A stretch of DNA of 45,424 bases from Limisphaerales bacterium (GCA_044225505.1 JBGAIN010000050.1:1-45424), one strand, 5' to 3'; counted from the first letter of the stretch, positions 10,314 through 41,202 are shown. Program-made: numbers and translations. The notes: generated by a model from the letters alone, not told the origin.

Positions 10314-11705
10314 TCATGGTTTGGGCGCGGCTGGAATAGCGTTGGTTTGGGCGGTGGACTTGGTCGGAAACAATCGTGCCCGCACATCAGCCTCGATCTC
10401 GGGCAACGCGGCCATCTGGACGTTGGATTTTCCTCCGTGCTTATCGTTGTAGTATTCCCACACACGCCGCGCCAGCATCGCGTGGCCGTTGGCGTCGTCG
10501 TCCTGGCCGTAAAACCGCGACTGAAGGTAACGACCAATCAAACCTTCCAGCAGTGCGCGCATCTGGGAGGGATTTGCGCCTTGGATTGTTTCCGTCACCC
10601 CTGCGACAACGAATTCATCCAAGCCTTGCCCTGCGACGACGACATCGGTGAAATTCGTCCGTGCATAGTTGAACCAATAGGCGGCCTCGCTTTGCCGGTT
10701 GTTCGTGTAAAGATGGTAGATTGCACCTTTGAGAAAGTTCTTCTGCCCGCGCGAAATGTACTCGCGCTTATCCGGCTCAGCTTCTCTCATCTCCTCGTAC
10801 GTGGCATTGACCTTGGGAATCATTTCCAGGTTCGGCCCGAAATCAACTCGGTTCGTGCCGCGATGCTCGATGAGCCGCCCGCGAAGGTAAGAGCCTTGCA
10901 TGGTCTGCCACATCACGCGGCGCAACGAGAGCATGTCGAACGTGCTGCCCTTGCAACGGGACAATCCCAACGCCGCCCAATAAATCGCGTGCGACTCGGG
11001 CATACGCCAGTCGAGCGGCCCGTATTTCTCGTCCACCTGCTGCATGAACGCGGGATCGAGTTTGTATTTCTGTCGAAGAGTCGCAGCGCGGCGCCGGGTA
11101 TCCTCCGTCTGTGGATTGAGCAACTGGCTCGGAGTGGCATTGGTGCCGAGCACGTCATACATCTCAACGATCCACTGCTGTTTGTAGTGCTTATGAGCAG
11201 TGTCACTGTATTTGCCCATCTTGTCCTGGAAAATCCACGCCAACTCGCGATGTAACAACGGGTCACGCGGATTGTAACGCAGCCCTTCGTCGCGCAGCAT
11301 TTCCATGCCGCTGCGCACCCAGAGCCAGCGGTCCGACGGCTCGGTGTATTTCACGGAGATGTTCCATGCCATGTTCCACGCGCGCATGGCCCACACTTGC
11401 GAGAATTCTGGCTGCAACTTCGTAATCCAGTCGGACAGCGTGTAGAGTTCGAAATACTTTTCCTCCTGCTGCAGCTGATCGGCACGAATCCATAGCACGT
11501 TGGCCACGATGCCGCGAAATCCGCCGCCCACCGCCGTGACGAACGCCAGTAACGGCGGCGCATTCTGCAATTCCACCGGCAACGTGACCCCCAGTTCCGT
11601 GCGCTGCATTTGCAGGCCGCGCTGGGACAGGAACAGCACCGGCAACATCGCCAATGCCAGCAACGCTAGCAGCCACCTTTTGGCTTGGGGGAAAAGTGAG
11701 TTCAT
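10314..11705 (-). CDS. Membrane-anchored TPR-like protein of the PVC 'IRE'-annotated family (ABC module partner)
   Basis: N-terminal TM helix, then GGFRGIVANVLWIRA...ITKLQPEFSQVW...AWNMAWNISV...RWLWVRSGMEMLRDEGLRYNP. It overlaps the upstream permease (ATGA). Confidence 0.8.
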   Translation of the reverse strand: MNSLFPQAKRWLLALLALAMLPVLFLSQRGLQMQRTELGVTLPVELQNAPPLLAFVTAVGGGFRGIVANVLWIRADQLQQEEKYFELYTLSDWITKLQPEFSQVWAMRAWNMAWNISVKYTEPSDRWLWVRSGMEMLRDEGLRYNPRDPLLHRELAWIFQDKMGKYSDTAHKHYKQQWIVEMYDVLGTNATPSQLLNPQTEDTRRRAATLRQKYKLDPAFMQQVDEKYGPLDWRMPESHAIYWAALGLSRCKGSTFDMLSLRRVMWQTMQGSYLRGRLIEHRGTNRVDFGPNLEMIPKVNATYEEMREAEPDKREYISRGQKNFLKGAIYHLYTNNRQSEAAYWFNYARTNFTDVVVAGQGLDEFVVAGVTETIQGANPSQMRALLEGLIGRYLQSRFYGQDDDANGHAMLARRVWEYYNDKHGGKSNVQMAALPEIEADVRARLFPTKSTAQTNAIPAAPKP

Positions 11706-13090
11706 GCCGCCACCTGTTCCCGCGCCAGTTCACGCCATGTGAAAATGTAGATGCCGGCGACCGCCGTCAGTCCGCCGCCCAACAAAACGATTCGCGCCAC
11801 GGCATTCGCGAGTTGCGCCCAAGTAATCGTCCGTCCCTCGCTCAAGCGCTCAATCGGTGATATCGCCGCCAGGGCCTGAGTGAATCCGTGCAGTACCCGA
11901 TACACCGGCAATGCCACGCCATCCAACGCGCGCGAATTAACCACGCCGGTTTCGGGATCCACTCCCAGCAAGGTCCCGTCCTCCAGCACGCTGCCGAACG
12001 TGTTGCCTGAAAGCGCCGCCAACAAGAGCGTCATGGCAAACAGCGACGCGGTGATGAATGACAGGAAGGAGGCCGCCGCCAATCCCAACGCCGTTAGCAG
12101 GGCCAGCCAGCATGACACCACCAGCAATGCGCGCAGGTAATTTCCCGCGAAGCCGCCTTCCGGAAATAAAACCTCCATCCCATCCTCTATCGGAAACAGC
12201 AACGTGGCGACATCGCGATTCTCGCATTCGATGTGCAACATGCCGTTCGGCCCGATCAACCCTGGCGGAATCACAAACTCATGAAACCCCATGCTCGTGA
12301 GTTGTTTCGGAATGCGGGCGAACCGTCCCGACTCCACGTTGCCGATCACCCAGACGGTCTGGTAACTTATGTCTTGCTTCAGCGATGCCGTGTGAAATTT
12401 CACGCGCAGATGCATGGGCTGACCGGCGAGCCGGTCGCGATGCGCTGACAGGTCGACATCCCACATGCGGCGATAATTGGGCCCGACCGTCTCCTGTCGG
12501 GCGCGAAGTTGATCGCGGATTTCGCGGCGCACCATCGCGGGGTCGAAGTCGGCCAAATTTTCCTCCTGCAACCGCCGAGCGAAAACTCTCTCGACGTCAC
12601 CTTCCAGATCCACTGCCCGTTCACGCGCCGCGCCGCGAGCGACCAAAACCTCCCGCACCAGCAGTTGCTGCTGCTCCGGCGGGAGTTTGCGCGCCTGCCA
12701 TTGCAGCATGGCGTAGGCGATGCCGCCGGCGAGCGACAGCAGGACGAAGTTCAGCGTCATGATGCCCATCCAGCGACCCAGCCAGATTTGCCAGCGCGCC
12801 GCAGGCTTCACGGCAAGCAACTGAAGCTGTCCAGGATCGATGTCGGTCGCGTGAGTGCCGCAGGATATCCACAGGCTCGCGATCCCCAGCAATCCGACAC
12901 ACAGGTAAAGGCTGTAAGTCAACAAGACCTGCGTGAACATGCGCGCCGTGCCGTTGTGCTTAATGAAGAACGGCAGCGACAGCACGCAACCGAGCAGCAC
13001 CACGGCCAAGGCGATCACCACGCGCAACCGCAACGCCGCTTTGACGGTCAGCCACGCGACAGCAAACAGACGTTGGAGTATGGCGTTCAC
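11702..13090 (-). CDS. ABC-2-type permease with a large extracytoplasmic loop
   Basis: Three N-terminal TMs with the LLAVKPAARWQIWLGRWMG motif, a ~190-aa soluble insert and C-terminal TMs ending YIFTWRELA. Confidence 0.85.
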   Translation of the reverse strand: MNAILQRLFAVAWLTVKAALRLRVVIALAVVLLGCVLSLPFFIKHNGTARMFTQVLLTYSLYLCVGLLGIASLWISCGTHATDIDPGQLQLLAVKPAARWQIWLGRWMGIMTLNFVLLSLAGGIAYAMLQWQARKLPPEQQQLLVREVLVARGAARERAVDLEGDVERVFARRLQEENLADFDPAMVRREIRDQLRARQETVGPNYRRMWDVDLSAHRDRLAGQPMHLRVKFHTASLKQDISYQTVWVIGNVESGRFARIPKQLTSMGFHEFVIPPGLIGPNGMLHIECENRDVATLLFPIEDGMEVLFPEGGFAGNYLRALLVVSCWLALLTALGLAAASFLSFITASLFAMTLLLAALSGNTFGSVLEDGTLLGVDPETGVVNSRALDGVALPVYRVLHGFTQALAAISPIERLSEGRTITWAQLANAVARIVLLGGGLTAVAGIYIFTWRELAREQVAA

Positions 13091-14277
13091 GATTTTGGCG
13101 GATTTATCAACGACGATAGTTTCCCCTCTGCCTCTTTCAACGCTTCGGTGTCATCCACCGCCGGAGCGGGCGCGCTCTTTGGTGACGGTGCGGACACCGG
13201 CGCGTCTTGCGTCAGCTCCGCCAGCTTGCCTTCGTCGGGTCTAAGTTCAGCTGAAGTGGCGGCAACCGGTGGGAGAAACTTAGGCGCATGCTCCGTCAAT
13301 CGTTCCAACACCTTTTCCCCGGCGGACGGCGCGGGCTCGGTCGGTTGCAGATATGCCGCCACGCGATTTCCCGCTGTCGCGCCGGAAGTGTCTTGGGCAT
13401 TGGCGCGGGCGCGGTTCACGACGCTGATGAAAAAGCTTTCAAGGTTCTGCATGGGCGTTTCGACGCGCACCGCCTCCGGCGCGGCTTCGCGACGCATCAC
13501 CGCCAGCACTTCCTCGACGAGCGGGCGCGACAACGCAGGCGTGGTGAATCGCAAGGAATCCGGCTTGGCCAGCAACTCGCGCAACGGCCCGGACGATTGA
13601 ATCCGTCCGCCGTAATAGATCACCACGCGATCGCACACGTCCTCGACATCGGCCAGCAGATGGCTGCTCAGGATGATCGTCTTACCGCGGCGCGCGAGGG
13701 CTTGGAGGACATCTTTCACCTCGCGGCAGCCGACGGGATCGAGGCCCGCCGTCGGTTCGTCGAGGATGATCAATTCCGGATCGTTGATCAGGGCCTGCGC
13801 CAGACCGAGCCGGCGTTGCATGCCTTTGGAAAACTCTCCGACCCGGCGTGTGCCCGTCCCTTTCAATCCTACCATCGCAAGCAGCTGCTCCGTGCGCAAC
13901 CGCCGCTCCTCCGCACTCAAAGCGAATACACGCCCGTAGAAATTGAGAGTCTCCGCCGCTGTGAGGTAGCGGTAGAGATACGATTCCTCCGGCAGATAAC
14001 CGATGCGCTCCTTCGTGGCGATGTCGCGCGGCGAACGACCGAGCACCTCGACGTAACCGCTGCTTTGATACAGCAGCCCGAGCAGAATCTTGATGGTGGT
14101 GGACTTGCCCGAGCCATTCGGTCCGAGCAAACCGAAGACTTCGCCGCGGCGGATCTCAAAATCCACGCCATCCACCGCGCGGGCTTTGGGGCGTCCCCAA
14201 ATGTCTTTGAACACCTTGGTCACTCCGCGCACGACAACGACGTTGGCCGCATCTGTGCTTTGCGAATTTGAGCTCAT
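13087..14277 (-). CDS. ABC transporter ATP-binding protein with a C-terminal extension
   Basis: Walker A GPNGSGKS, signature FSKGMQRR, Walker B IILDEP and switch SSH, followed by a ~130-aa Pro/Ala-rich tail. Confidence 0.95.
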   Translation of the reverse strand: MSSNSQSTDAANVVVVRGVTKVFKDIWGRPKARAVDGVDFEIRRGEVFGLLGPNGSGKSTTIKILLGLLYQSSGYVEVLGRSPRDIATKERIGYLPEESYLYRYLTAAETLNFYGRVFALSAEERRLRTEQLLAMVGLKGTGTRRVGEFSKGMQRRLGLAQALINDPELIILDEPTAGLDPVGCREVKDVLQALARRGKTIILSSHLLADVEDVCDRVVIYYGGRIQSSGPLRELLAKPDSLRFTTPALSRPLVEEVLAVMRREAAPEAVRVETPMQNLESFFISVVNRARANAQDTSGATAGNRVAAYLQPTEPAPSAGEKVLERLTEHAPKFLPPVAATSAELRPDEGKLAELTQDAPVSAPSPKSAPAPAVDDTEALKEAEGKLSSLINPPKS

Positions 14278-16241
14278 GCGAGTTGCGGTTTCAATTCTCC
14301 ATCGGTCGGGGCAGACGCACTTTCGGGCGCGGGAATCACTTCGAGTTCCTCACCCTGACGCACGAGACGGGCGCTGTTGAAGACGACGAGCAACGAGCCG
14401 GCGTTGTGCAGGATCGCGGCGACAATCGGATTCAAGTAACCGAGCGTGGCGGCGGTCAGGCCGCCAATGATAAAGAAGACGCCGATGAGAAAATTCTGAT
14501 TGATGACCACGCGCGTCTGGCGCGAAAGCCGGACCAGAAACGGGAGCCGCCGCAGATCGTTGTTCATCAGCGCAATCGTCGCGCTGTGGATTGCCACTTC
14601 GCTCCCCGCCGCGCCCATCGCGATGCCGATGTCGCCGCTGGCCAAAGCCGGAGCGTCGTTCACACCGTCCCCGACGACTGCCACGCGATAGCCCCGTTCC
14701 TTCACCTTCTTCACGTAAGCCACCTTGTCCTGCGGCAAACAATCCGCTGCGACTTCCTCGCAACCGATTTCCTTCGCGACGCGCGCGGCCACCGGTTGCC
14801 GGTCGCCGGTGACCATCGCAATACGTTTGACTCCGGCGGCGTGCAATTCCTCCAATGCCGGCGCGGCCTCGGCGCGCCGTTGGTCCTGAAACCCGATCCA
14901 GCCGATGAACACGCCATCGCGCGCGACGAACAACACGCTGAATCCCTCTGCTTCGTCGAGATCAGCAGCCACCATCGAAGCTTCGGCGACGCCGTTGTCG
15001 CGCAACCATTGCGCCCGTCCTACCAATACGCGCGCGGCTTTCACCTGCGCCGCCACGCCGCGACCGGCAGTTTCCGCGAAGTCCTGCGGTTCAACCAAGG
15101 GAACGCTCGTCTCCGCTGCGACCGATTGCAGCGCCTTAGCCACGGGATGATTGCTGTATTTCTCTGCCGACGCCGCGAGTTGCAGCAGCACGGAAGCGCT
15201 CACTCCTGCGGCAGGAGCAAGGCGCGACACGGAGAGCTTTCCAGTTGTGAGCGTCCCGGTTTTGTCGAAGATGAAGGCATTGATCCGCGCAGCGAATTCA
15301 AGGTCGGCGATGTTCTTGATCAGAATGCCGAGCCGCGCTGCCGCTGAGAGCGCAGCTACCATGGCGCTGGGCGTGGCGAGTACAAAGGCGCAGGGACACG
15401 CCACGACCAGCACGGCGATCACACGGTTGAGATCATGTGTGAATACCCAGATCAAGGCGCCGAGCGTCAACACCAGTGGCGTGTAATAGCTCATGTATTG
15501 GTCCATCAACCGCATGATCGGGAGCTTGGTCTGCTCCGCGGCCAGAATGAGTTCACGCACGCGGCCCAGCGTCGTGTCCTGACCGGCGCGACTGACGCGC
15601 AGCTCCAGGACCCCTGTAAGATTGATCGTGCCGGCGAAGACTTCATCGCCCGGTTTGCGATCCACCGGCAACGATTCGCCCGTGATGCTCGCTTGATTGA
15701 TGCTGCCCATGCCCGATCTGATGACGCCGTCGGCGGGGATGTTGTCGCCGGGTCGCACGCGGACGATGTCGCCCACGGCGAGTTGATGCGTGGCGATTTC
15801 TTCTTCGTCCGTTGCCGTGACGCGTCGCGCTTTCGTGGGCGTGAGTTGAATCAGGGATTCAATGGAAGCCCGCGCACCTGCGGCAGTGCGGGTTTCGATA
15901 ATTTCGCCGATCAACATGAAGAACGAAACAACGCCGGCCGTTTTGTAATCACCCGTGGCGAACGAGGCGAGCACCGCCAGACTGACGAGTTCGTTGATGC
16001 TGACTCGGCCGTTGAACAAGTCACGCCCGGAAGTCAGGAGGATGGGCGAGGCCAGAATCAAAGCTCCGACGAAGGAACTGATGCCGGCGATGGCCGCTCC
16101 GCGCGGGAAGAACCATTCGACGAAATAGGCGTTTACGATGAACAGGACGCCGAACAAAGTCTGTTGCAGGCGCGCGGTGGATTCGCCGGGGACGGCGGAC
16201 GCGGTTTCGGTATCGCGATTCAGAAGCGTGGTGACTTGCAT
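14274..16241 (-). CDS. Heavy-metal P1B-type ATPase (copy 1)
   Basis: Motifs TGES, CPC, DKTGT, SNHP, GDGVNDAP and HNAGS in the last TM. No N-terminal metal-binding domain. The start MQVTT matches the paralog. Confidence 0.95.
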   Translation of the reverse strand: MQVTTLLNRDTETASAVPGESTARLQQTLFGVLFIVNAYFVEWFFPRGAAIAGISSFVGALILASPILLTSGRDLFNGRVSINELVSLAVLASFATGDYKTAGVVSFFMLIGEIIETRTAAGARASIESLIQLTPTKARRVTATDEEEIATHQLAVGDIVRVRPGDNIPADGVIRSGMGSINQASITGESLPVDRKPGDEVFAGTINLTGVLELRVSRAGQDTTLGRVRELILAAEQTKLPIMRLMDQYMSYYTPLVLTLGALIWVFTHDLNRVIAVLVVACPCAFVLATPSAMVAALSAAARLGILIKNIADLEFAARINAFIFDKTGTLTTGKLSVSRLAPAAGVSASVLLQLAASAEKYSNHPVAKALQSVAAETSVPLVEPQDFAETAGRGVAAQVKAARVLVGRAQWLRDNGVAEASMVAADLDEAEGFSVLFVARDGVFIGWIGFQDQRRAEAAPALEELHAAGVKRIAMVTGDRQPVAARVAKEIGCEEVAADCLPQDKVAYVKKVKERGYRVAVVGDGVNDAPALASGDIGIAMGAAGSEVAIHSATIALMNNDLRRLPFLVRLSRQTRVVINQNFLIGVFFIIGGLTAATLGYLNPIVAAILHNAGSLLVVFNSARLVRQGEELEVIPAPESASAPTDGELKPQLA

Positions 16242-16247
16242 GGGCAC

Positions 16248-17321
16248 TCAGGGATTGGCGACGGTGTTAGTCTTGGCGCGCGCGGGTTCGCGGTTGAGTT
16301 GCAGGCGCACCTGATGGGGGTGGCCGGGGTTTGCGCGCGGTAGTAGAAACGTGTCCTGCGCCCCGGCGACCACCGTTTCCATTGCTTCCGCCAACAGGCG
16401 GCGCTTAAACAACGTCGGCTCAGAGCGGTAGTGCGGCAGTTGATCGGTGAAATATTTCGCCTGACTGGCGACCGCCAGGACGAGCTTGTTACTCGCGGTG
16501 ATGCCTTCGTTCAATAGCGCCTGCGCCTGGCCGCCCGCCTTCAGGGTGACTTCGTTGGCGTAACCGCGTGCTTCGTTGATCTTCTGGCTCCTTTCCTGTT
16601 CCGCCCCGAGCACGGCTTCGAACGCTGCACGCACATCCACCGGCGCGACGACCTGCACTTCGAAGGGGTCGAGCGTGACACCGAGTTGATGCCGCGCGAT
16701 GCCCTCGCTAATCTCCGCCAATACGGCGTCGCGAAACACCAGCTTGTCGCGATAAATCGCAGACTCGGCGGTGACGCCTGAGGCGGCGTGAATCAACGCG
16801 CTGTTGAGCAGCGATTGAAGGACACTCGATGCGCTGCGAAACCGGAAGGCGTATTGCCACGAATTGCTGATGCGATACTTCAACGTGGCTCGCGCGTGGA
16901 AGATATTGCCATCGCCCGCCAGCAGATAACCATCCGCACCCGGCGTGAGCGTGCCGCGCGGAGGCGGTTCTTCGCCGCGTGCCTGTTGCTCGGGCGTCAC
17001 GGCATACCAGCCGATGGTCGAGGTAACCGTGTGACTCTCCCCGGCGGGTACGCGCACGATTTCGTCGACCGGATAAGGAAACGCCCAGTGCAAGCCGGGC
17101 TTCAACACCTGCGCCTCGCCCGTGCCGACCGGTTTGCCAAAGCGGAGCACGATGGCGACTTCGTTCGGTTCGACCGCGAAGACGCCGGAGAAAATGACGA
17201 CAAGTGCTACCAGCGCCATCAGCACCTTGAGGATCTGCAAGCTGCTGCGCAACGCGTCGTTCAACGCCCGTGAGCCGGCGTCTTCCTGCGGTGGAGCGGG
17301 AGGTTTGTCTGCAATGTTCAT
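16248..17321 (-). CDS. hflK: SPFH-domain protein, HflK-like
   Basis: TM, then SGVFAVEPNEVAIVLRFGK...PGLHWAFPYPVDE, and the coiled-coil PVDVRAAFEAVLGAEQERSQKINEARGYAN. Confidence 0.85.
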   Translation of the reverse strand: MNIADKPPAPPQEDAGSRALNDALRSSLQILKVLMALVALVVIFSGVFAVEPNEVAIVLRFGKPVGTGEAQVLKPGLHWAFPYPVDEIVRVPAGESHTVTSTIGWYAVTPEQQARGEEPPPRGTLTPGADGYLLAGDGNIFHARATLKYRISNSWQYAFRFRSASSVLQSLLNSALIHAASGVTAESAIYRDKLVFRDAVLAEISEGIARHQLGVTLDPFEVQVVAPVDVRAAFEAVLGAEQERSQKINEARGYANEVTLKAGGQAQALLNEGITASNKLVLAVASQAKYFTDQLPHYRSEPTLFKRRLLAEAMETVVAGAQDTFLLPRANPGHPHQVRLQLNREPARAKTNTVANP

Positions 17322-18247
17322 GGCTTTGGGACCGCGGGTGTCTGGGAGGTTGCGGTAGGATTCAACGCCTCGGCTTGGAGCAGATTGAACGGGGGCGTCT
17401 GCGGATCGAGCACGAGCGTACTGCGTTCCTTGAGGGAATTACCGAGCGCATTCAACTGAATGAGAAAGCTCGCGAGTTCTGGTTCTTGCTGGAACACGGC
17501 GAAGTTCTTCGCAGCTTCAGCTTCGGCCGCGCCGCGCAGTCTCATCGCCTCCGCGTCGGCGCCAGCGAGGGTTTCCTGCTTCACCCGATCGGCCTCGGCA
17601 CGGATGCGAATGGCCTCGGCCTCGCCTTCGCTTTGGAACTGTTTCACGAGCCGTTGCCGTTCCGCGCGCATTCGGTCGAACACCTTGCCAGTGATGCTTT
17701 CGGGTAGCCCCAGTTGCTTGACGCCGAGCATAGTGACGCGGATGCCGTAGTTCGTGGCGGTTTTGCTTTGCACGAGCGCGAGCATCTCGGCCTCGGCCTG
17801 CTGGAGTTTCACCCGCGATCTGTTGGTAGAGATCAACTCGCCGAACGCGTGATGACCGATCACGGCATTCTTCGCGTCGCGCACCACCCCTTCCAACGCT
17901 TGTTCAGCGCGGGTCATATCGCCTTGGGCAAACCGTTCGATGAACAGTCGCGGATCGGCGATCTGCCAGGCCGTGAACACGCTGACGATGAGGCTGCGAC
18001 CGTCCGCCGTAGTAGTCTGCTCGAACTTGCGCTCGAAGGTCTGCTGGCGATTGTCGAATGTGTAAACCTTGTTGGCAGGCCACGGCCAACGGAGATAAAG
18101 CCCGGGATCAGTAATGGCGCGATCAAAGCGTCCGAACGCGGTGACGACCGCCACTTCCGTCTGCCGCACCTGGAACAGGAAGAGCACGGAAACGAAGATG
18201 CCCAGAACGAGCGCGGCGATAATGACAGTGAGACGAAGTTTCTTCAT
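17318..18247 (-). CDS. hflC: SPFH-domain protein, HflC-like
   Basis: FQVRQTEVAVVTAFGRF...PGLYLRWPWP...FDNR, LGLPESITGKVFDRMRAER and SEGEAEAIRIRAEAD. Start taken at MKKLR (18247). Confidence 0.87.
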   Translation of the reverse strand: MKKLRLTVIIAALVLGIFVSVLFLFQVRQTEVAVVTAFGRFDRAITDPGLYLRWPWPANKVYTFDNRQQTFERKFEQTTTADGRSLIVSVFTAWQIADPRLFIERFAQGDMTRAEQALEGVVRDAKNAVIGHHAFGELISTNRSRVKLQQAEAEMLALVQSKTATNYGIRVTMLGVKQLGLPESITGKVFDRMRAERQRLVKQFQSEGEAEAIRIRAEADRVKQETLAGADAEAMRLRGAAEAEAAKNFAVFQQEPELASFLIQLNALGNSLKERSTLVLDPQTPPFNLLQAEALNPTATSQTPAVPKP

Positions 18248-18251
18248 GGGA

Positions 18252-21069: not shown

Positions 21070-21078
21070 GGTCAAAGA

Positions 21079-21897: not shown

Positions 21898-21976
21898 CAA
21901 ATATATTCCAGCGCAAACAGCGGTCGCCAGTCACGAGACCGATTGATGGCGACCGCTTGATGGACTTGCCCGTGGG

Positions 21977-28746: not shown

Positions 28747-28756
28747 GGCGCTATGC

Positions 28757-29857: not shown

Positions 29858-30091
29858 ACGAGGAAAGGAAGATGCGAGCACGGTCCGTTCGCTACCACTG
29901 GGCGACACGTATTGCTCGGAGTGATAGTATTCATGGAGTTTGTCATCATCTTCGTCGACAACGGCACGAGACCTGGGATCAAGGCGCAGGGATTCTCGAA
30001 TCCAGTCTTGATGTCCGATGATTTTATCATCCACCGGTGGCAAGCGGAGGTGCTGGTATCAAGATGGAAACTCATAAAACGGGGGCCGGGG

Positions 30092-31126: not shown

Positions 31127-31194
31127 GGAAACGATTCAAATTCAGCAGTGATAAACACCCGCTTCGAGGCGGCTCGTTTTTCTCGCAGAAAAGC

Positions 31195-31217
31195 GCACAG
31201 GGCTCCGAACCCTGTGC
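31195..31217. terminator. Perfect 8-bp stem hairpin downstream of the permease gene (terminator or RNA-stability element)
   Basis: gcacaggg-ctccgaa-ccctgtgc. On the minus strand it is followed by gcttttct. Confidence 0.35.
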
Positions 31218-31240
31218 CAGGTGAACAATAATTGGGTCCA

Positions 31241-33652: not shown

Positions 33653-33818
33653 CAGGAGGCGTTGCTTGGGCTTTTAAGGACTGATAACCGCTCGTAGAAA
33701 TTGCATCACTGGTTCGCAATTTCTTCTCGCGTTGTGGTCTCATTTTCTCTGATGAAAGGCAGGTCCAGCGCTCCGCCCGTTACCGCTTGGAGTTGAGGGC
33801 GGAGCGCCGCGAAGGCTT

Positions 33819-36800
33819 CTAGTTCCCGCGTGTGACCCGGTAGAAGGCAGCACCGCCTCCGACGGGCACGGTAAACTGTTTGTCGCGACCCGTGCCGATA
33901 AACGGTTGGCCAAGGTTGCTCCAAGGTCCGGTAATGCTGCCTGCGGATTGCAGTTGATAAACGATACCGTCCTGAGTTGTGACGGTGAGCGCGAGCTTAG
34001 CTGCATCGGAGCGTGTCAGCCTCAGTTCCACTTCCGGTGAAACAACCTCGAAGTGGTAGTAGGCGACCTCGCTTGTCACCGCCTTGTTCCCAGCCGATAA
34101 CGTTCCAGACGCTTGTAGTCCAAGGCGGTAATAGCCAGGTTTGCTAAAGGCCCAATTGACGTGCTGATGCCCCCCGGTTGACAAGGTGTATGCATCTTGA
34201 TTATCCAGACCGTCCGCGCTGTTCCACTTGACTTGTGGCACTCCAAAGCCGTCCACCGTGTAAACGGCTACGTTGCCCGGTCCTTCCACCGACACCAGCG
34301 CGAGATTTACTTGATCGGCCACGAACACGCCGTTGGTGATTTCTTCCGCTGCCAGTCCCAGGAAGAGCAGTTTAGGATTCTCTGCTTGGGGAAGAATCCA
34401 TACAGGTGCGCCCGACGGTCCCAGGAAGCGGAATGAGTCATTCGAAGGCACTGTAGTCTGTGCTACAGCGGCAATGTGTAACAACGCTTGATCCGGGGCG
34501 TATTCGGTATCTGTCGCCTCGTGGTGAACGTGCAGATTGAATGCATCGTCCTCGAATGCGATGCCGATGTCCGTGTCGCCCGTCCCAACCCGCGTGGCGG
34601 GTCTCAGCAGGAGGGGACGCTCAGAACCCTCGCTCAAGAGGATGCCGCCACCGGCAATCCATCCTCGGTCGTTGATGCCGTAAGCCGCGGTGATCTCCAA
34701 CCCGGTGCCGAAAGGGACTAGCGTGTTGAGATCGCGCATCCCGTGAGCCGAATTCCAAACCCAGGCGTGGGTGTGGTCTGCGAAGGCATCCGCGGGATCT
34801 AGCGTGCCCCAACCCACCACTTGGTCGTTGGTGTTAATGGCAAACGCCCAGACATTGCCACCGCCGAGCGAGCCTAGATCTTGCATGCCGATTCCTTGCT
34901 CCCACAAGAATGCGCGCTGCATTGCGTTCGTGTCGCGCGAGCGGCCCACAACCTTGCCAGTCTCGCTCACGGCAGTCGCGCGGCTACTGTCGCCACCTAG
35001 GGTCCCCAAGTCGTCCGTCGCTGGATCGAGCGACCCGGAGCCAGCTCGCCGAAAAGCGCGTTGCTGCCCGTTCGCCAAATGGGCCCAACCGACAATGATG
35101 CCGGCGTTATTCAAGCCCTCCGCTCCGCTCGAATCTCCTCCGAAGGTGCCTAGATCAATTGTGGGTCCGTTGGTGGGTGAGAGAAACGCGCGCATCCTGC
35201 CGCCGGGGAGATCGAGCGTGCCCACGGTCGTGCCTCTGTCATTCACATCGTGTGCCTCGCCATTTTGCGCGCCAAGAATGAGAGTGATTTGCTCGAAGAT
35301 GCCGTTCGGGCCCAACCGATAGGGTACATAAGGCTCCGAGTCTCCTGCCGGCGTGGTGCTTGCGCCGACAATCCAACCGGTATCGCTGATGGCCTCCGCA
35401 CCCGCCGTGCGGCCACCGATCAGGCCGAGATTTTCCAGCACGCCATTTTCCCATCGGAAGATCGGATGATCGATGTTGTTCGTGAGACTTGACCCGCCGA
35501 CCACGACGCCTTGGTTGTTCACGTCGATCGCCGTGTTGAACAAGGTACCGCCAAACGTGCCGAGATCGGTGACCAGATAGACCGTATTATCCGGCTCCGG
35601 AGGCTGAGGTAGCTTTGTTTCCGGCACTTCCACGGTGTAGTAAGCGACCTCGCTGGTGACCGATTTATTTCCCGCGACGAGCGTGCCGGACGCGCGAAGC
35701 CCGATACGATAAGTGCCTGGCGCGTTAAACGCCCAGTTCACGTGCTGATGCGACCCGGCGACCAAATCAATGGTGTCGTTCGCGTTAATGCCGTCCGCGC
35801 TGTTAAAATGAACGACGGGATTGCCAAAGGAATCTGACGTGTACATCGCCACATCTCCACGGCCTGTTACAGTCACGAGCGAGAGGGTGAGTCGATCATT
35901 GACAAAGATGCCCTTCTCGATCTCTTCCGCTGCGACGCCGAGAAACAGAAGATCGGAGTTCTCGACGGCGGGCAGAATCCAGGTTGAATAACCCGGCCTG
36001 CCCAGGAAACTCAGTGCCACGGTGTCAGGGATCGGCTGTTCGGCAGCGGTGCCAACAACGAGCGTCGCTTCGGTCGGAGCGTATTCCGTATCTGTGACTT
36101 CATGGTGAATGTGCAGATCGAACGCGCCCTCTTCAAAAGCAATGCCAATATCCGTGTCGCCATGATCAATTCCTGGCACGGGCGTAGCGATGAAACCGTG
36201 GTGCCGCCCGGTTTGATCGACGTACTCGCCGACGATTACGCCCGCGTCGTTCAGGCCAAACACTTCCACCGAAGCCGCTCCGGGAGGAGTGAACACACTC
36301 GTGCGCCCGTCGCTGGTGCGGAAGAAGCCCGCAAACGTCTCGAACCCGTTGTTGACCGTCCCCGCAATCGCGCCGCTGTTGTTAATATCGCCGGGAAGCG
36401 TGTTTTCCCATCCCGGCACGGTGAAGACGGAGGAGAAATTGGTGCCGTTTACGATGACCCCTTGGAGATGGAGATTGTCGTCCCACTTCCAACCGGTCAG
36501 GGTACCGGCGCTGTTCATGCCGCGCGTCACCGTGCCGAGGGGCGAGCCAGGGAAGACAAGGTTAGTGGTGAAGCTCTTGTCCGCTTCGCGGCGGAAGCTG
36601 CGGATGAAAAACGGTTCGTCTTCGAAATGGTAGCCGTTAATCTGTCCGGCGTCATTCAAGCGCCAGAGATAGGTCGTGGTGGTCTGGCCCGGCGAATCAA
36701 TGGTGACAAATGTGCCATTGGTCTCGCGCAGAAAACCGTGCTGAACGTCCGGGTTCGCCGCATCGCGATAGAAGCCGACCATCCGTCCGGATGAATCGAA

Positions 36801-38804
36801 TCCCGTGGCAAAGGTGGCCGTGTTACCCGTGACGTTGAACGATAAGACATTGGTGCCGTCTTGGAAGAACCCGTGACCCAAATCATTCAGGTCGTGATAA
36901 CGACCGACGAGTCGCCCGTCGTTGTCGATGTCGGCCAACAAGGTATCCTTCGTCCCTGGCAGATCAAATGTTTGAAAGTTAAAGTGAGGGAGGTCCTTCT
37001 CCGGCGTGGCGATATAACCATGGAATATGCCATCGGCCGTCTGAAAACTACCAACGATCTGCCCGTTATTGTCCAACCCTGACGCCCCGATTCCGTGCCA
37101 TCCAGGCTCGCCCACAAATTCGATTTCCGTGAACTTTCCTTCCTCGTATAGGAAATAGCGATTGCGAGTTCCGGTCGATGCCTGGCGTGCGAATCCTAAA
37201 ATAGTTCCCTGATCCGTTATTGAGCTGAAGTAACTCGCGGTCGCATTTGGAAACGTGACCGTGGACAGATTGGTCCCCTGCAAAAGGAACCGGTAGGACA
37301 GCCTGTTGGTTACCGCATTCCCGACCAGGGAATAAACAGCGTAACCCAATAAGTCGCCCCTATTGTTGATAGATTCAAAGCCGGATAGGATCGCACCTGG
37401 GATCTCGACCTTGGTCAGGTTTGTCCGGTCGTAGCGCCAGGCAAAATTTCCCTGGGCACCAACCGCATCGCCGACAACCACTCCGGCGTCATTCAGTCCG
37501 CGAGCATACGTATTCCCCGCGCCGGATGGCGTGAGGATCGTAAAGTTGGTTCCATATCGAACATAGCCATCGCTCTCCATGAAGCCGGCGATATCATTCT
37601 GATTGTTGAGAGCAAATATGCTCATGCTTCCATAGCTCGGGTCCGGTTCGATAATGGTGAATTTGCCGTCAGCTGTCCGGAGGTATCCTTTGTTAATACT
37701 GTAATCGGCGTTGTACCATTCGCCCGCCATAACCCCGTTTGTGTTGATGGCATTGGCAGTGGTATGCACCGCGCCTGGCACATCAATGCGTGTCATGGTG
37801 TAGCGCTTTACGGGAATCGAAGGATAGGCCAGGAACGAGTGATTGATCTTGTTGGTATCTTGATATCGGCCGACGATAACGCGGGTGTCGTTGATGCCAT
37901 AAACGCGAATAGACGGTTCTTCCGCAAACGTAATCACCTGCGTTGATCCGTCGGCCCATCGAACAAAGGGAACCTCGGCGTTGGCCACGGTCTCCTTGTA
38001 ACCTCCAACGATGTCACCACGATTGTTGATCCCATAGAGGGTGGTCTGCGCGGCTCCGGGATAATTCCAGATCTGGAATGTGTCCGTCTTTGTGTCGTAG
38101 ATCAGACCATTGGCTTTGTCGAAGAAACCGTTGAAAGCAACTCCCACGGCGATTCCAGCCTCATTGAGACCCCACGCGCCGGAAGTTTGGTATCCCGGTG
38201 TGTTGAAGACCACATAGGTGTCATCCGGTTTGCGGACCCAGCCAACCGTGGAAGAGCCGCCCGCAACCTCACCGGCATTGTTGATATCGACGGTAAAGTT
38301 GAAATTTGTATCGCCCGGCCAGCCAATGGCCTGTAAACTGCCGTCAGCCTTTCGGACGAACGCCTTGTAAGTGTTCCCCTTCGGATCCGCAGGGTCTGCA
38401 GAATATCCAGCCAAAGTCCCGGCTTCATTAATACCTTCCCATTCTGTAAAACTGGAGCCAGCCGCGCCACCACGTTCGCGCTCACCTCCGTCAAAATAGA
38501 GATAGCCTCGACTGACCCCATCGGCGCCATCGAGCGTGCCGGTGATCATGCCGCGGTTGTTGATTTTATTCGCAGAATCGCCCGCGGAGTTGGTTAACGA
38601 TAGGCGCACGAACTGATAGTTCAGATGTATTTCGGCGTGCAACGAGGGCGTGACGACGCCCAAGACCGTCAACAGGAGCAGCGCTAGCCCTGCGCCCAGT
38701 CGCTTGGGTTTGGCAGACGGGCGCAAGGCGGGCGAAAGAGGGTCCTTCAAAGGATCAGGTCTCATTTTAGTGCAGGGTGGCAGAGTTTCTTGTTCGATTT
38801 TCAT
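33819..38804 (-). CDS. Large secreted protein with HAF-like beta-propeller repeats, two choice-of-anchor M domains and an F[YF]R tail
   Basis: Signal peptide (LALLLLTVLGVVTPSLHA), many [G/D/A]IN-x2-G-x-IVG blades and DLGT[FL]GG HAF repeats. Two GDTDIGIAFE...HQHVNWAF domains. It ends AAFYRVTRGN. Confidence 0.9.
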   Translation of the reverse strand: MKIEQETLPPCTKMRPDPLKDPLSPALRPSAKPKRLGAGLALLLLTVLGVVTPSLHAEIHLNYQFVRLSLTNSAGDSANKINNRGMITGTLDGADGVSRGYLYFDGGERERGGAAGSSFTEWEGINEAGTLAGYSADPADPKGNTYKAFVRKADGSLQAIGWPGDTNFNFTVDINNAGEVAGGSSTVGWVRKPDDTYVVFNTPGYQTSGAWGLNEAGIAVGVAFNGFFDKANGLIYDTKTDTFQIWNYPGAAQTTLYGINNRGDIVGGYKETVANAEVPFVRWADGSTQVITFAEEPSIRVYGINDTRVIVGRYQDTNKINHSFLAYPSIPVKRYTMTRIDVPGAVHTTANAINTNGVMAGEWYNADYSINKGYLRTADGKFTIIEPDPSYGSMSIFALNNQNDIAGFMESDGYVRYGTNFTILTPSGAGNTYARGLNDAGVVVGDAVGAQGNFAWRYDRTNLTKVEIPGAILSGFESINNRGDLLGYAVYSLVGNAVTNRLSYRFLLQGTNLSTVTFPNATASYFSSITDQGTILGFARQASTGTRNRYFLYEEGKFTEIEFVGEPGWHGIGASGLDNNGQIVGSFQTADGIFHGYIATPEKDLPHFNFQTFDLPGTKDTLLADIDNDGRLVGRYHDLNDLGHGFFQDGTNVLSFNVTGNTATFATGFDSSGRMVGFYRDAANPDVQHGFLRETNGTFVTIDSPGQTTTTYLWRLNDAGQINGYHFEDEPFFIRSFRREADKSFTTNLVFPGSPLGTVTRGMNSAGTLTGWKWDDNLHLQGVIVNGTNFSSVFTVPGWENTLPGDINNSGAIAGTVNNGFETFAGFFRTSDGRTSVFTPPGAASVEVFGLNDAGVIVGEYVDQTGRHHGFIATPVPGIDHGDTDIGIAFEEGAFDLHIHHEVTDTEYAPTEATLVVGTAAEQPIPDTVALSFLGRPGYSTWILPAVENSDLLFLGVAAEEIEKGIFVNDRLTLSLVTVTGRGDVAMYTSDSFGNPVVHFNSADGINANDTIDLVAGSHQHVNWAFNAPGTYRIGLRASGTLVAGNKSVTSEVAYYTVEVPETKLPQPPEPDNTVYLVTDLGTFGGTLFNTAIDVNNQGVVVGGSSLTNNIDHPIFRWENGVLENLGLIGGRTAGAEAISDTGWIVGASTTPAGDSEPYVPYRLGPNGIFEQITLILGAQNGEAHDVNDRGTTVGTLDLPGGRMRAFLSPTNGPTIDLGTFGGDSSGAEGLNNAGIIVGWAHLANGQQRAFRRAGSGSLDPATDDLGTLGGDSSRATAVSETGKVVGRSRDTNAMQRAFLWEQGIGMQDLGSLGGGNVWAFAINTNDQVVGWGTLDPADAFADHTHAWVWNSAHGMRDLNTLVPFGTGLEITAAYGINDRGWIAGGGILLSEGSERPLLLRPATRVGTGDTDIGIAFEDDAFNLHVHHEATDTEYAPDQALLHIAAVAQTTVPSNDSFRFLGPSGAPVWILPQAENPKLLFLGLAAEEITNGVFVADQVNLALVSVEGPGNVAVYTVDGFGVPQVKWNSADGLDNQDAYTLSTGGHQHVNWAFSKPGYYRLGLQASGTLSAGNKAVTSEVAYYHFEVVSPEVELRLTRSDAAKLALTVTTQDGIVYQLQSAGSITGPWSNLGQPFIGTGRDKQFTVPVGGGAAFYRVTRGN

Positions 38805-38814
38805 GGTTCAGGAA

Positions 38815-40404
38815 TCAGGGGTTAGAGCGTTCGAGGCGAAAGAGGGCGGATGGAAAGTCGAGCTGGATGACTACTTCACGGCGCTGTCCATCTCCGGAAA
38901 AAGGCTCGCCCAGCGATTGCCAGGGGCCGTCGGGAGCTTCAGCCGTTTGGAGCTGGTAACGCTGCGCATCGAGGGTGGGCCATGATAGCACCAGACTGTG
39001 GGAGGCTCGTCTCGCCAGACTCAACGGCATCTCGTGCGCAACGCGATAGGCTTCCGCGGCGATGGCAAAGGCGGCGTCGCTCAGTCCATTGTTGAACACC
39101 AGCTGCACTGGCGTCGCAGAGGAATATTGAGGCGAACGCACGGTAAGCGGAAAACTGTACGCGCCGATGGCAGGCGCGAGGCCGTTGGTTGTCCGTAGAA
39201 TGAATGTGTAATGGGTATGAATCGTCCCGCGTGTGTTTGCTTTAGAGATGGAATACCCCGCGGCGAACGTGGTTGTCCGCGCCACGGTGACGGAATTCAA
39301 CGGATCACCGAAGGGACTGGGTTCCACGAAATCCATTTGCTCCGCCCCGATGTTGGCCACCGCCCAATTTGTTCCATCCCAGCGCCGCAACGGGCCGGTC
39401 ACATCAAAGAGAATCTCGTCTTGAAATTGGAAGCTGTTTCCGGCGAACCCGGGATTATCCGTGGCCCAGACGGTTCCATCACCATGCACGTCACTCTCGC
39501 GCAGATTTCCGACGTGAATGGTCTGATCGACCGAGAGCGTACCGTGCGTAGGTGTAATGAATATGTCCGAATGGACAGGGGCGACAATCGGATTGCCTGG
39601 GTCGGATGGGGAAGAGGGTGCGCTAACGATGTGCTCCACGGCTGCCGTCGCGCGCTTCAAAACATCGTCGATTACGTGATTGCCCAGCAGGACAAACGCC
39701 GGATTGGACGGTTGCTGGAACCCGGAAACCGTTGCTTCCAATGCCACCAGATAGACCCCAGGGGCAGGAGCGTCATTTGATTTTGAGTCCAGACTTGCGC
39801 TGCCGAAAATATTATACGCAAGGTGGCTATGCACATAGCCTCCCGGTCCAGTCGAGGCAATCACGTATCCGGGTACATGATTGCTCGAACCATCAGCAAC
39901 AACTTGATCGGAGGGAACTTCGGGCCTCAAGTACTGGAGCACTTCGCCCGAAGGAACAGCCCCGAACTTTGCCTCCCCGACTCCATCCCAATAGGACAGA
40001 TTGCGCCCCGTAAAACTGGCCGGGATGATATTGAAGCCGAGCGAGGAATTGCTGGGCAGGGCCTGATCGCCCGGCGGCATAAGCTGAAAATTATTCCGCA
40101 CCGCATTCCAACCGGGGCTATTGACCGATACTGCCCCGGTCGCGCCTTGCACAACGGACAAGGGAACATTAAAGACTCGATTGCTTTCCAGAACTCCGGA
40201 TGTGTCGAAGTCAAAGCCACCAATGCGCAGCAATCCATCACGCTGGTAGACGAGAATGTCGATATGGTCCTGGCCGTGGGTTAATGGAGCCAAGGCCAGG
40301 ATGGCGGAAATGACGTGGACCGCCATGAGTTGTGAGCGCCTCATAGAGTTGTATTGATCCGCGGCTTGCGGTTTACTTCCAGCGGTGTGGCGCATTGTGA
40401 GCAT
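38815..40404 (-). CDS. Secreted two-domain His-motif protein with F[YF]R-like tail
   Basis: Signal VISAILALAPLTHG. Domain 1 reads HID...YWDG...HSHL...GVY; domain 2 reads HSD...RWDG...HTHY...GAY. It ends ALFRLERSNP. The start may be at MRRSQ (~40344). Confidence 0.82.
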   Translation of the reverse strand: MLTMRHTAGSKPQAADQYNSMRRSQLMAVHVISAILALAPLTHGQDHIDILVYQRDGLLRIGGFDFDTSGVLESNRVFNVPLSVVQGATGAVSVNSPGWNAVRNNFQLMPPGDQALPSNSSLGFNIIPASFTGRNLSYWDGVGEAKFGAVPSGEVLQYLRPEVPSDQVVADGSSNHVPGYVIASTGPGGYVHSHLAYNIFGSASLDSKSNDAPAPGVYLVALEATVSGFQQPSNPAFVLLGNHVIDDVLKRATAAVEHIVSAPSSPSDPGNPIVAPVHSDIFITPTHGTLSVDQTIHVGNLRESDVHGDGTVWATDNPGFAGNSFQFQDEILFDVTGPLRRWDGTNWAVANIGAEQMDFVEPSPFGDPLNSVTVARTTTFAAGYSISKANTRGTIHTHYTFILRTTNGLAPAIGAYSFPLTVRSPQYSSATPVQLVFNNGLSDAAFAIAAEAYRVAHEMPLSLARRASHSLVLSWPTLDAQRYQLQTAEAPDGPWQSLGEPFSGDGQRREVVIQLDFPSALFRLERSNP

Positions 40405-40723
40405 GTCGGCGCGCGACCAGCGGAGTCTTCCCGGACGGCTGGATTCGTGACGGCATTCCGCGCCACACCACTGAATTCTCTCGTTCCTGATTAGTTCATG
40501 TTTTTCTGGTTCGACCCGACGCGATCTGGCCCTTGGTTCTCAATATTCCCACAACACACTAGTGGTGCCTGGGTAACTGGGTATGAAAGCCGCATCCACT
40601 GCTCTAAACGAGGGTTCCGCCAAAGGCCGGGACCGGAACCTGGGATGCGAAAAAGGCCTGAAACCTCACGAACAGGAAGGATAGGGGCAATACCGCTAAA
40701 CCTCTAACCCCCGCGCGCTGACT

Positions 40724-41119
40724 TCAGGAGGCAAGAATGGGAGGCCCGCAAGAGTAGGGGAGTAATCGCGGGGAGGGCGGCAGCATCGGCACTACCGGTG
40801 CGCCATTGAGATAAAGCAAAGCGGGCGCGGGAACCTCGACTGTAACAACGGCGACGAATGCACCGACATGGCCGTGCGCGAAGACCGTAATGCCGCAATC
40901 CTCATCTTGGTTTTGGGGCAACTGGTGGGAATCAGACGCGCATCCATCCATCCGATGTCCACAGACCTGGCAAACCAGGTCCGTACGGTGATGGAGTCGG
41001 TGATGGGCCGCCCGATCGGACGAGAACCAAGACAACAGCAACAAGAGACAGAGCTGACTCATGGCTGCCAGAGCAGCCATCCTTCGGCGCTGCCAGAGAT
41101 TGTCTGTTTTACGGGTCAA
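40724..41119 (-). CDS. DUF2946-like His/Cys-rich leader protein
   Basis: Hydrophobic N-terminus, HHRLHH, CQVCGH, DCGITVFAHGH and a Pro-rich C-terminus PRLLPYSCGPP. It is the first gene of the minus-strand cluster. Start uncertain. Confidence 0.7.
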   Translation of the reverse strand: MTRKTDNLWQRRRMAALAAMSQLCLLLLLSWFSSDRAAHHRLHHRTDLVCQVCGHRMDGCASDSHQLPQNQDEDCGITVFAHGHVGAFVAVVTVEVPAPALLYLNGAPVVPMLPPSPRLLPYSCGPPILAS

Positions 41120-41171
41120 GGGATATAGCAGTCGAACAGGCCTGTAGTAATCAAATCAACCGACCTCACGC

Positions 41172-41202
41172 AAGATAAAAAATGCAGAATATTCCGCGTC
41201 AA
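41172..41202 (-). promoter_or_regulatory. Candidate sigma70 promoter (TTGACG-N19-TATCTT) overlapped by an 18-bp dyad
   Basis: Minus strand ttgacg-cggaatattctgcattttt-tatctt. The dyad ATGCAGAATATTCCGCGT (41182-41199) has 7 of 9 positions complementary. Confidence 0.45.

Follow-up and report, generated by a model that had tools for sequence, protein, structure and literature searches.

A co-directional gene array in a Limisphaerales bacterium as a probable accessory island for zinc limitation

We analyzed a 45,424-bp stretch of DNA from a Limisphaerales bacterium (GCA_044225505.1, JBGAIN010000050.1:1-45424), hereafter the window, which is the whole of contig C116 in a genome of 9.04 Mb and 342 contigs (G000). 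Homologues carry source names (Verrucomicrobiales, Limisphaerales, Pedosphaera) that accord with a place in Verrucomicrobiota. Four sequencing runs, all from one study, contain this DNA, and no RNA run was listed among the holders. From position 41119 down to 10314, 22 consecutive open reading frames (ORFs) lie on the minus strand. Judging from the sequence, and with a probability of roughly 0.55, we read this array as an accessory zinc-limitation island of up to nine co-directional units and not as a self-contained import pathway. The reading draws on gene content, motifs, paralogy and a recurrent co-location with zinc uptake genes, all of which were observed directly. The island holds the only ZepA gene of the genome, four of its six choice-of-anchor-M matches, two COG0523 GTPases with a WD40 protein, and a second copy of each of two envelope modules. 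The genome also encodes ordinary zinc importers, which the island supplements rather than replaces.

Results

Layout of the array

A preliminary description, made from the window alone, had reported a 31-kb, 22-gene run on a single strand, and the ORF count (10314-41119, all minus) bears this out. Pfam and NCBIfam scans likewise recovered the families it listed, namely two COG0523 proteins, a WD40 protein, an All3515-family protein, choice-of-anchor-M proteins and small His-rich proteins. Absent from its list were a P1B ATPase, three SPFH proteins, two ABC ATPases, two ABC-2 permeases, a TPR protein and an ADOP/MacB-type permease. Thirteen of the 21 gene junctions overlap or span at most 10 bp, the remaining eight are gaps of 48-319 bp, and a strong intrinsic terminator (31217-31195) lies 3' of the ADOP gene. 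Because of these wide gaps and the terminator, the array comprises up to nine transcription units by spacing, not one operon. The terminator was the single result above shuffled controls in sigma-70 and terminator scans. The genes are listed below in the direction of transcription, with lengths in amino acids (aa).

Unit 1: 40724-41119, minus, p131, first gene of the array; small membrane-anchored Cys/His-rich protein with CxxCGH, DEDC and CGPP motifs (6.1% His)
Unit 2: 38815-40404, minus, p529, secreted; two copies of an unnamed beta-sandwich domain and an FN3-like C-terminal tail
Unit 2: 33819-38804, minus, 1661-aa surface protein; HAF repeats, two choice-of-anchor-M domains and an FN3-like tail (NF038134 258.3 bits in two stretches; TIGR02913 119.7 bits)
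Unit 3: 31241-33652, minus, ADOP duplicated MacB/FtsX-type permease (TIGR03434 800.9 bits, cut-off 622.3, profile positions 4-803 of 803; MacB_PCD, FtsX)
Unit 4: 30092-31126, minus, coaM344, secreted choice-of-anchor-M protein with FN3-like tail (NF038134 103.7 bits)
Unit 5: 28757-30043, minus, COG0523b, divergent; GCVCC motif, 60-aa N-terminal extension (PF02492 96.7 bits, PF07683 41.8)
Unit 5: 27976-28875, minus, ABC ATPase of the triad (Pfam/NCBIfam)
Unit 5: 27203-27979, minus, ABC-2 permease of the triad (Pfam/NCBIfam)
Unit 5: 26294-27193, minus, membrane-anchored TPR protein of the triad (Pfam/NCBIfam)
Unit 5: 25866-26297, minus, his143, small putative lipoprotein with the stretch HHEHNPPH (4.9% His); overlaps the stop of the TPR gene by 4 nucleotides
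Unit 6: 24428-25783, minus, COG0523a, canonical GTPase metallochaperone with GCICC motif (PF02492 206.8 bits, PF07683 92.7)
Unit 7: 23246-24262, minus, WD40 beta-propeller without signal peptide (PF00400 155.5 bits)
Unit 8: 21977-23050, minus, ZepA homologue (NF040463 204.4 bits, cut-off 75; residues 55-281 of 357, profile positions 3-226 of 227)
Unit 9: 21079-21900, minus, coaM273, secreted choice-of-anchor-M protein with FN3-like tail (NF038134 87.8 bits); first gene of a nine-gene tail unit that continues with the eight-gene membrane module
Unit 9: 20122-21075, minus, ABC-2-like permease, eight-gene module
Unit 9: 18252-20120, 17318-18283 and 16248-17321, minus, three SPFH proteins, all above the PF01145 cut-off
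Unit 9: 14274-16247, minus, P1B ATPase (TIGR01525 558.9 bits, cut-off 346.25)
Unit 9: 13087-14277, minus, ABC ATPase, eight-gene module
Unit 9: 11702-13090, minus, 462-aa membrane protein, eight-gene module
Unit 9: 10314-11705, minus, 463-aa helical protein, eight-gene module

Gene sets tied to zinc in other phyla

All3515 of Anabaena is ZepA, a Zur-repressed exoprotein that binds zinc and mediates its uptake (PMC10957091). According to the same source, homologues are sporadic in bacteria of the Planctomycetes-Verrucomicrobia-Chlamydiae (PVC) group, where COG0523 genes, TonB-dependent receptors, PEP-CTERM proteins and Fur-family genes are neighbours, and homologues from four phyla proved zinc-specific in an E. 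coli assay. The window protein, whose gene is unique within its genome, resembles ZepA of Anabaena sp. PCC 7120 (Sarasa-Buisan et al. 2024, PMC10957091) in its family match and in the zinc motif H-X2-9-H-[FY]-H, retained as HHFDTSFENNHYH at residue 85. At its N-terminus a charged start leads into a hydrophobic stretch, LKQLAFAAALTVGSATLHNACA, a putative signal peptide. COG0523 genes and other anchored surface proteins lie in its neighbourhood, as in the zepA contexts that paper describes.

The window protein differs from that system at its C-terminus, which ends in QFFRMHRP and forms a tail of ~75 aa, FN3-like, in place of PEP-CTERM. Given this tail, and since the NCBIfam scan returned no PEP-CTERM model match, we regard it as a ZepA-domain protein with a different anchor. 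Also unlike the published system, no Fur-family gene, TonB-dependent receptor, ZnuA gene or zinc-sparing paralogue adjoins it, and no Zur-type palindrome was found upstream: the 195-bp gap there holds a single, unrelated palindrome, GAACATATCCATGTTC. A PDB sequence search with the protein gave no meaningful match.

In two genomes a choice-of-anchor-M domain and ZepA are naturally fused in one ORF, as a 559-aa protein in G003:C309 (L129, 655-2175) and a 576-aa protein in G017:C237 (L128, 2375-3898). Both clusters are headed by a p131 homologue (44-56% identity) and continue with coaM273- and coaM344-like genes, and an abcA2 homologue adjoins the cluster in G003. Such a fusion is not mentioned in the available text of PMC10957091, in which neither "choice-of-anchor" nor "TIGR03769" occurs.

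The same ~75-aa tail joins ZepA to coaM273, coaM344, the 1661-aa protein and p529 in a tail alignment, making five proteins with one C-terminus. Three of these exceed the choice-of-anchor-M cut-off (NF038134, 55 bits); of the six such matches in the genome, the two that lie outside the window contig share a 4.5-kb contig. Across 18 choice-of-anchor-M domains from the window and its relatives we found a conserved N-terminal G-[HED]-x-D strand, PQ, GPG, a D-G...D stretch and H-x-H-x-N-W-x-F. The mature N-terminus of coaM273 reads QHIHIQ, with GHVHVNW further on. coaM344 has 175 homologues, and within its subfamily of 108 sequences every member keeps H146, H148, D131 and D137, and nearly all keep H11 and D13.

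p529 matched no family, and the profile comparisons gave it no relationship to the other surface proteins: hhalign probabilities for p529 or its family profile against the choice-of-anchor-M profile and against ZepA were 8.4%, 3.9% and 1.1%, the 3.9% being the value against the choice-of-anchor-M profile that places p529 outside that family. Its two halves are homologous to each other (hhalign probability 99.9%), its domain carries the conserved pattern HxD ... PGF ... WDG ... HxH, 338 representative proteins match it at E<=0.001, and its relatives end in PEP-CTERM or MYXO-CTERM anchors.

Structure models of p529 and coaM344 reached predicted local distance difference test (pLDDT) values of 93.4 and 94.3, respectively. 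The coaM344 tail (residues 193-266) is FN3-like, with Z scores up to 7.3 (3mpc, 6.5). Fold searches with the coaM344 and p529 domain models returned generic beta-sandwich, FN3, pilin and cupredoxin-type matches only, with Z below 8, and assigned no fold to the putative metal-binding domains; a PDB sequence search with coaM344 gave no meaningful match. Because the models match generic beta-sandwiches only, we infer metal binding by the choice-of-anchor-M and p529 domains from their conserved His and Asp residues and from context.

Two small proteins complete this set. Neither Pfam nor NCBIfam matched p131. Among the Atlas clusters closest to it is one with the label DUF2946 (score 0.96), which we treat as no more than a lead; we take DUF2946 to be a copper-linked family. 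For his143 we found no family match, and tblastn returned no homologue in its own genome or in related loci.

NCBIfam links choice-of-anchor M to the domain type (TIGR03769/TIGR03773) of three surface proteins of Corynebacterium diphtheriae, CmrA, CmrA2 and DIP0443, which together with an "anchored repeat" troA cluster are zinc- and Zur-repressed (PMC6711530). In the troA-dip0445/CmrA system, as here, surface proteins of the TIGR03769/TIGR03773 type stand beside ABC genes and a COG0523-type GTPase regulon, and hrtAB, a MacB/FtsX-type permease, adjoins cmrA much as the ADOP permease adjoins the 1661-aa protein (PMC6711530). Our host, unlike C. diphtheriae, is Gram-negative, has the FN3-like tail in place of sortase anchoring, and carries adjoining ABC systems of ABC-2 type without a binding protein, not TroA-type importers. 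The window also holds no anchored-repeat ABC system (TIGR03770-03773): PF01297 and ABC-3 genes are absent from it, and TIGR03771, TIGR03772 and TIGR03773 all score below cut-off.

Both GTPases belong to COG0523, each having a cobW domain and a CobW_C domain above the Pfam cut-offs and a CxCC motif. Their scores against more specific models fall short, at 184.3 and 63.1 bits for ZigA (NF038288, cut-off 600) and 250.3 for the YjiA type (PRK11537, cut-off 361). COG0523a carries the stretch HGQEHAPGHTHDD and an insert of ~130 aa between its GTPase and C-terminal domains that is conserved across a very large family of ~450-aa proteins; the WD40 protein has 342 homologues at E<=1e-30. In prokaryotes, COG0523 genes of subfamily 5 are found clustered with WD40 and znuABC genes (Haas et al. 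2009, PMC2770081), and COG0523a resembles them in its GTPase domain, GCxCC motif, His stretch and WD40 neighbour, the pair being directly followed by znuABC in a relative, G319. In the window, unlike in the published clusters, 165 bp lie between the two genes and znuABC is not adjacent; the likeness is judged from motifs and context.

The preliminary description had invoked three precedents from other phyla. That All3515 is Zur-regulated in Anabaena is borne out by its identity with ZepA (PMC10957091), and the C. diphtheriae troA cluster (PMC6711530) supports the statement that TIGR03769 domains accompany metal ABC systems in Actinobacteria. For COG0523 and its WD40 neighbour, the available text of PMC2770081 upholds the association for prokaryotes generally; the statement for Anabaena in particular was not found there.

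Relatives combine homologous genes with zinc uptake genes

Only one of 201 genomes of the order, G043, has a clear orthologue of COG0523b (45% identity); a related-loci search with COG0523b alone had returned one irrelevant locus. The G043 gene lies on contig C36 in the order znuA-znuC-znuB-fur-COG0523b-DUF3450-exbB-exbB-exbD-tonB-TPR-CDF-ZnuD-like receptor-coaM-coaM, followed by the same TPR/ABC/ABC-2 triad as in the window. The receptor scores 337.7 bits as ZnuD-like and the CDF protein 440.6 bits as a DmeF-type Co/Ni transporter, and the two choice-of-anchor-M genes encode two and six domains. A 15-nucleotide motif, TTGCAWAWCNWTTGC, has three sites in the 5.2-Mb G043 genome (C36 129956, 143545 and 149488; none for the reversed control), all of them in promoters of this locus: at znuA, between znuD and coaM, and between coaM and the triad. 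We propose it as a candidate operator of the Fur-family protein of the locus; because the pattern was built from those three sites, only its absence elsewhere is informative.

A second arrangement occurs in G319, from another family of the phylum. Here contig C29 carries, on one strand, a COG0523a orthologue (57% identity), WD40, ZnuA, ZnuC and ZnuB and then the eight-gene module, and the binding protein scores best as the zinc type AztC/ZnuA. The WD40 neighbour and the znuABC genes of G319 and G043 provide a context that supports a zinc link of the COG0523 proteins.

Two envelope modules with paralogues elsewhere in the genome

The membrane genes of the island fall mainly into two modules, the triad and the eight-gene module, which stand out as its uncharacterized components. 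Each is a surplus copy: such modules are spread widely through the phylum, and this genome encodes housekeeping versions on contigs C27 and C97.

Of 401 genomes sampled across the phylum, 50 carry the triad, which was intact in all 21 loci examined and had no conserved neighbours. The second triad of this genome, at C27:20664-23168, is 59-71% identical to the window copy. In a FastTree phylogeny of concatenated ATPase and permease sequences, which carries no support values, the C27 triad groups with two genomes of the same genus and the window copy with genomes of other families. A DNA search of same-genus genomes with 21000-40900 found only the triad and one coaM344-like gene, for which reason the island may have been acquired laterally; base composition gave no signal of lateral acquisition. 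In 11 of the 21 loci the TPR partner has at least six His within 30 aa, and up to 18, in a His/Asp-rich loop (C27:20664-21542; loci L047, L078-L097). The window TPR protein (26294-27193) has no His-rich tract.

The nearest functional analogy known to us is the NosDFY-NosL copper-delivery complex, in which an ABC ATPase and an ABC-2 permease work with an extracytoplasmic partner and with a small lipoprotein that binds metal, without binding-protein-dependent import. The window offers a comparable set in the ATPase, permease, TPR protein and putative lipoprotein his143. The two systems have no sequence relationship beyond the ABC-2 class, and the window partner is a TPR protein, not a beta-helix.

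All junctions of the eight-gene module overlap or span at most 3 bp. A full paralogue lies at C97:21792-32773 (42-69% identity), and the gene order is retained in G082, G445, G319, G215 and G483. The core of the module consists of the ABC-2-like permease, the ATPase and the 462- and 463-aa proteins, and the 463-aa family is present in 250 of 401 genomes of the phylum; into this core the three SPFH genes and the P1B ATPase gene are inserted in 5 of 20 outside loci. For the 463-aa protein, a PDB sequence search gave no meaningful match and an Atlas search returned only "hypothetical protein" clusters, in PVC phyla. We considered the SPFH trio as HflK/HflC and rejected the assignment: two score below cut-off (127.2 and 109.5 against 159.4) and one barely passes HflC (136.2 against 134.4).

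The P1B ATPase belongs to its class by score and by its CPC, DKTGT, TGES and GDGxND motifs, and it shares these core motifs with the solved pumps ZntA (4umv), CopA (3rfu/3j08) and P1B-4 (7qbz), to which it is about equally similar (E 2e-100 to 5e-90). It has neither an HMA nor a His-rich N-terminal domain, and its last helix contains HNAGS, which matches no P1B subgroup signature that we know of. Unlike the genes of those pumps, its gene is embedded among three SPFH genes and an ABC-2 system, and five other genomes retain this arrangement.

The end of the window, outside the range of the preliminary description, holds the remains of a third, partial module copy, detected by blastp and tblastn.

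41850-45423, minus: decaying partial third module copy
45064-45423, minus: SPFH fragment (62% identity to 16248-17321)
43084-45060, minus: intact P1B paralogue (76% identity)
Within 41850-45423, minus: ABC ATPase remnant in three frames (49-76% identity)

A fourth P1B paralogue lies at C330:82348-84300, followed by a ZIP gene (81432-82193). An N-terminal His-rich tract (6-12 His in 30 aa) is present in four of seven P1B copies from outside the window (C97:26803-28815, C330:82348-84300, L150 and L169) and absent from both window copies. We also looked for the loss of CxxC motifs, as in classic zinc-sparing paralogues; the one such motif in either island or housekeeping copies is in the C97 P1B ATPase. 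Given the His-rich TPR partners, the His-rich P1B N-termini and the P1B paralogue beside a ZIP gene, both modules are metal-linked, and the island copies, having lost their His tracts, suggest a switch of isoforms when zinc is limiting.

The pump raises the question of which metal is concerned. An island for copper, nickel, cobalt or several metals, and not for zinc specifically, would accord with the CPC motif and near-equal similarity to CopA, ZntA and P1B-4, with the resemblance of p131 to DUF2946-labelled clusters, with weak cupredoxin-type matches of the choice-of-anchor-M and p529 models (Z 5.1-6.7), with the DmeF-type CDF gene in the G043 locus, and with the fact that COG0523 proteins serve cobalt and iron enzymes too. 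We nevertheless consider it improbable, as ZepA homologues are zinc-specific in the E. coli assay (PMC10957091), the transporters co-located in relatives score best as zinc types (ZnuD and AztC/ZnuA), and the cupredoxin-type matches lie below the level that would mean more than a common fold.

Exporter-type architecture is likewise what a metal-efflux or resistance island, induced by excess metal and not by starvation, would display, and the window offers a P1B ATPase in two copies, two ABC-2 systems and a MacB-type permease, to which the G043 locus adds its CDF gene. Against this stand the acquisition and starvation functions of ZepA, COG0523, znuABC, the ZnuD-like receptor and TonB-ExbBD in the related loci (PMC10957091). 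Family matches in the window, moreover, include no metal-sensing MerR/ArsR regulator and no RND/CzcCBA genes, and we hold an efflux role to be very improbable.

Ordinary zinc importers are encoded elsewhere in the genome

The preliminary description had characterized the array as a zinc-starvation regulon without ZnuABC or a TonB receptor, providing a full route that replaces the classical importer dependent on a substrate-binding protein (SBP). Its first part is true of the cluster itself, in which Pfam and NCBIfam scans found no ZnuA-type binding protein and no TonB-dependent receptor. A search of the genome for znuABC and zur, however, found a ZnuA/C/B-like operon and two Fur-family genes outside the cluster. 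The operon (C283:1031-3589) lies behind a porin-like gene and combines genes for an ATPase and a permease with one for a ZnuA-type protein, which scores 168.4 bits. The genome further encodes two ZIP proteins, eight Plug-domain receptors and a TonB-ExbBD cluster. Since classical importers are thus encoded in the same genome, the replacement claim fails; homologous genes in G043 and G319, too, co-occur with znuABC and do not stand in its place.

The region C283:1031-5450 carries on one strand a small Cys/His-rich ORF (107 aa), the porin-like ORF (499 aa) and the ZnuA/C/B-like genes, and at C283:5049 it has a perfect 8-3-8 palindrome without a second copy in the genome. A further ZnuA-family operon, on C115, was rejected as a zinc system because NikR lies alongside: this locus, C115:17515-23744, which besides NikR and the ZnuA-family binding protein encodes an ATPase, an ABC-3 permease and a TonB-dependent receptor, probably serves nickel uptake.

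Complete SBP-independent zinc import, in which surface capture, a membrane step by the ABC-2 and P1B proteins and cytoplasmic chaperones replace ZnuABC and TonB-dependent receptors, would nonetheless explain why the cluster has no binding protein or receptor of its own. Some triad TPR partners have His-rich loops like those of zinc-binding proteins, and the triad appears to be co-regulated with zinc uptake genes in G043. Yet the importers just described are present, the modules coexist with znuABC (G043, G319) and with a ZnuD-like receptor, and the ABC-2, MacB-type and P1B architectures are those of known exporters or extractors, so that we give this scheme little credence. The "unconventional membrane step" proposed earlier is made up of ABC-2 systems together with a P1B ATPase and the MacB-type permease; an importer architecture is seen in none of them, and the ABC-2 modules mostly occur away from zinc genes.

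Observations that weigh against a zinc-limitation island

Several observations count against our own reading. The first concern regulation. No regulator gene lies inside the window, and no Zur-type operator common to its units was found there. A listing of palindromes in all intergenic gaps gave four unrelated ones. Candidates picked by eye, ATGAGAANTTCTCAT and GCACAAAC-N3-GTTTGTGC, have no copy in other promoters in a genome-wide scan, and G043-derived palindromes, run over the window's own genome, fell near no metal genes. The G043 motif is derived from the same sites that it matches, and it does not exceed chance here, with a two-mismatch match at 41274 and 304 genome-wide. Neither Fur-family protein of this genome (C319, C303) closely resembles the regulator of the G043 locus, at 26% and 20% identity. 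The earlier notion of a zinc-starvation regulon keeps its link to zinc limitation through ZepA, the CmrA-type proteins, the COG0523-WD40 pair and the loci of relatives; the searches found no common operator for it.

The proteins themselves supply further weak points. All membrane components are of exporter type in architecture, a poor fit to acquisition. The only pointers to zinc specificity in the choice-of-anchor-M and p529 domains are conserved His and Asp residues, and structure prediction of a COG0523a-WD40 complex gave run scores of 0.00, 0.59 and 0.03.

The membrane modules could also be accidental neighbours, since all 20 triad loci sampled from other genomes have no COG0523, ZepA, choice-of-anchor-M, ZnuA or ZnuD gene within ~9 kb and only one of the five outside SPFH/P1B loci has zinc genes. 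On such an account a zinc core (p131, the surface proteins, ZepA, COG0523a-WD40 and COG0523b) would be interleaved with unrelated, independently regulated membrane modules, as the eight wide gaps, the terminator after the ADOP gene and the failure to find a common operator would allow, together with the lack of conserved triad neighbours and the breadth of the eight-gene core (250 of 401 genomes). The finer arrangement argues otherwise: COG0523b overlaps the triad ATPase ORF at its end, and coaM273 lies 3 bp from the eight-gene module. In G043 the triad stands in the zinc locus behind a promoter with the locus-specific motif, in G003 the abcA2 homologue adjoins the ZepA cluster, in G319 the module follows COG0523-WD40-znuABC, and partners of both modules have His-rich tracts. 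We therefore regard a chance juxtaposition as unlikely.

Flanking genes

Two genes on the opposite strand border the array.

8531-9862, plus: HipA-like kinase (PF07804 171.6 bits)
41684-42661, plus: PrsW, overlapping the ABC ATPase remnant of the third module copy

A small ORF lies upstream of the HipA-like gene (together 8168-9862, plus), and the two are likely a toxin-antitoxin pair directly flanking the island. Also outside it, a 770-aa ORF (1807-4119) has only a marginal copper-amine-oxidase match (28 bits), with a DUF6795 ORF nearby (6029-6517). A tRNA scan found none.

Discussion

We favour an accessory role of the island in zinc limitation, for which the following course of events can be proposed. 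Under zinc shortage the cell would display His-bearing beta-sandwich proteins, namely the ZepA-like protein, the CmrA-like choice-of-anchor-M proteins and the p529 family, held at the surface by their common FN3-like C-terminal tail, so that Zn2+ would be bound outside the cell. The metal would then cross the envelope via transporters encoded elsewhere, entering through TonB-dependent receptors or a porin and passing on through the ZnuABC-like system and ZIP permeases. Once in the cytoplasm, the scarce zinc would be allocated to client proteins at the expense of GTP by COG0523b and by COG0523a, the latter with its WD40 neighbour. The triad and the ABC-2/SPFH/P1B module would be metal-linked envelope machines of exporter-type architecture, whose island copies, having no His-rich tracts, are probably low-zinc isoforms that move or hand over metal on the periplasmic side.

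A bolder extension, which we put forward only tentatively and think rather unlikely, takes the triad and the eight-gene module as undescribed metal-trafficking machines of the PVC envelope. In zinc-starved cells, the island isoforms, the surface proteins and a COG0523 GTPase would then pass zinc along without a classical binding protein. If true, this would amount to a NosDFY-like, ATP-driven hand-over of zinc across or along the envelope.

Good descriptions of zinc-starvation regulons exist for Proteobacteria, Firmicutes, Actinobacteria and cyanobacteria, and hardly any for Verrucomicrobiota. The island unites three gene sets that are each tied to Zur in a different phylum: ZepA, CmrA-like TIGR03769 surface proteins and COG0523-WD40. 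The natural fusions of ZepA with choice-of-anchor-M domains give the otherwise uncharacterized CmrA-type domain a concrete candidate role in capturing zinc outside the cell. The two modules built around ABC-2 permeases are common across PVC bacteria and have no family assignment; equipped with His-rich partners and recurring beside znuABC, they are candidates for a new form of metal handling in the bacterial envelope.

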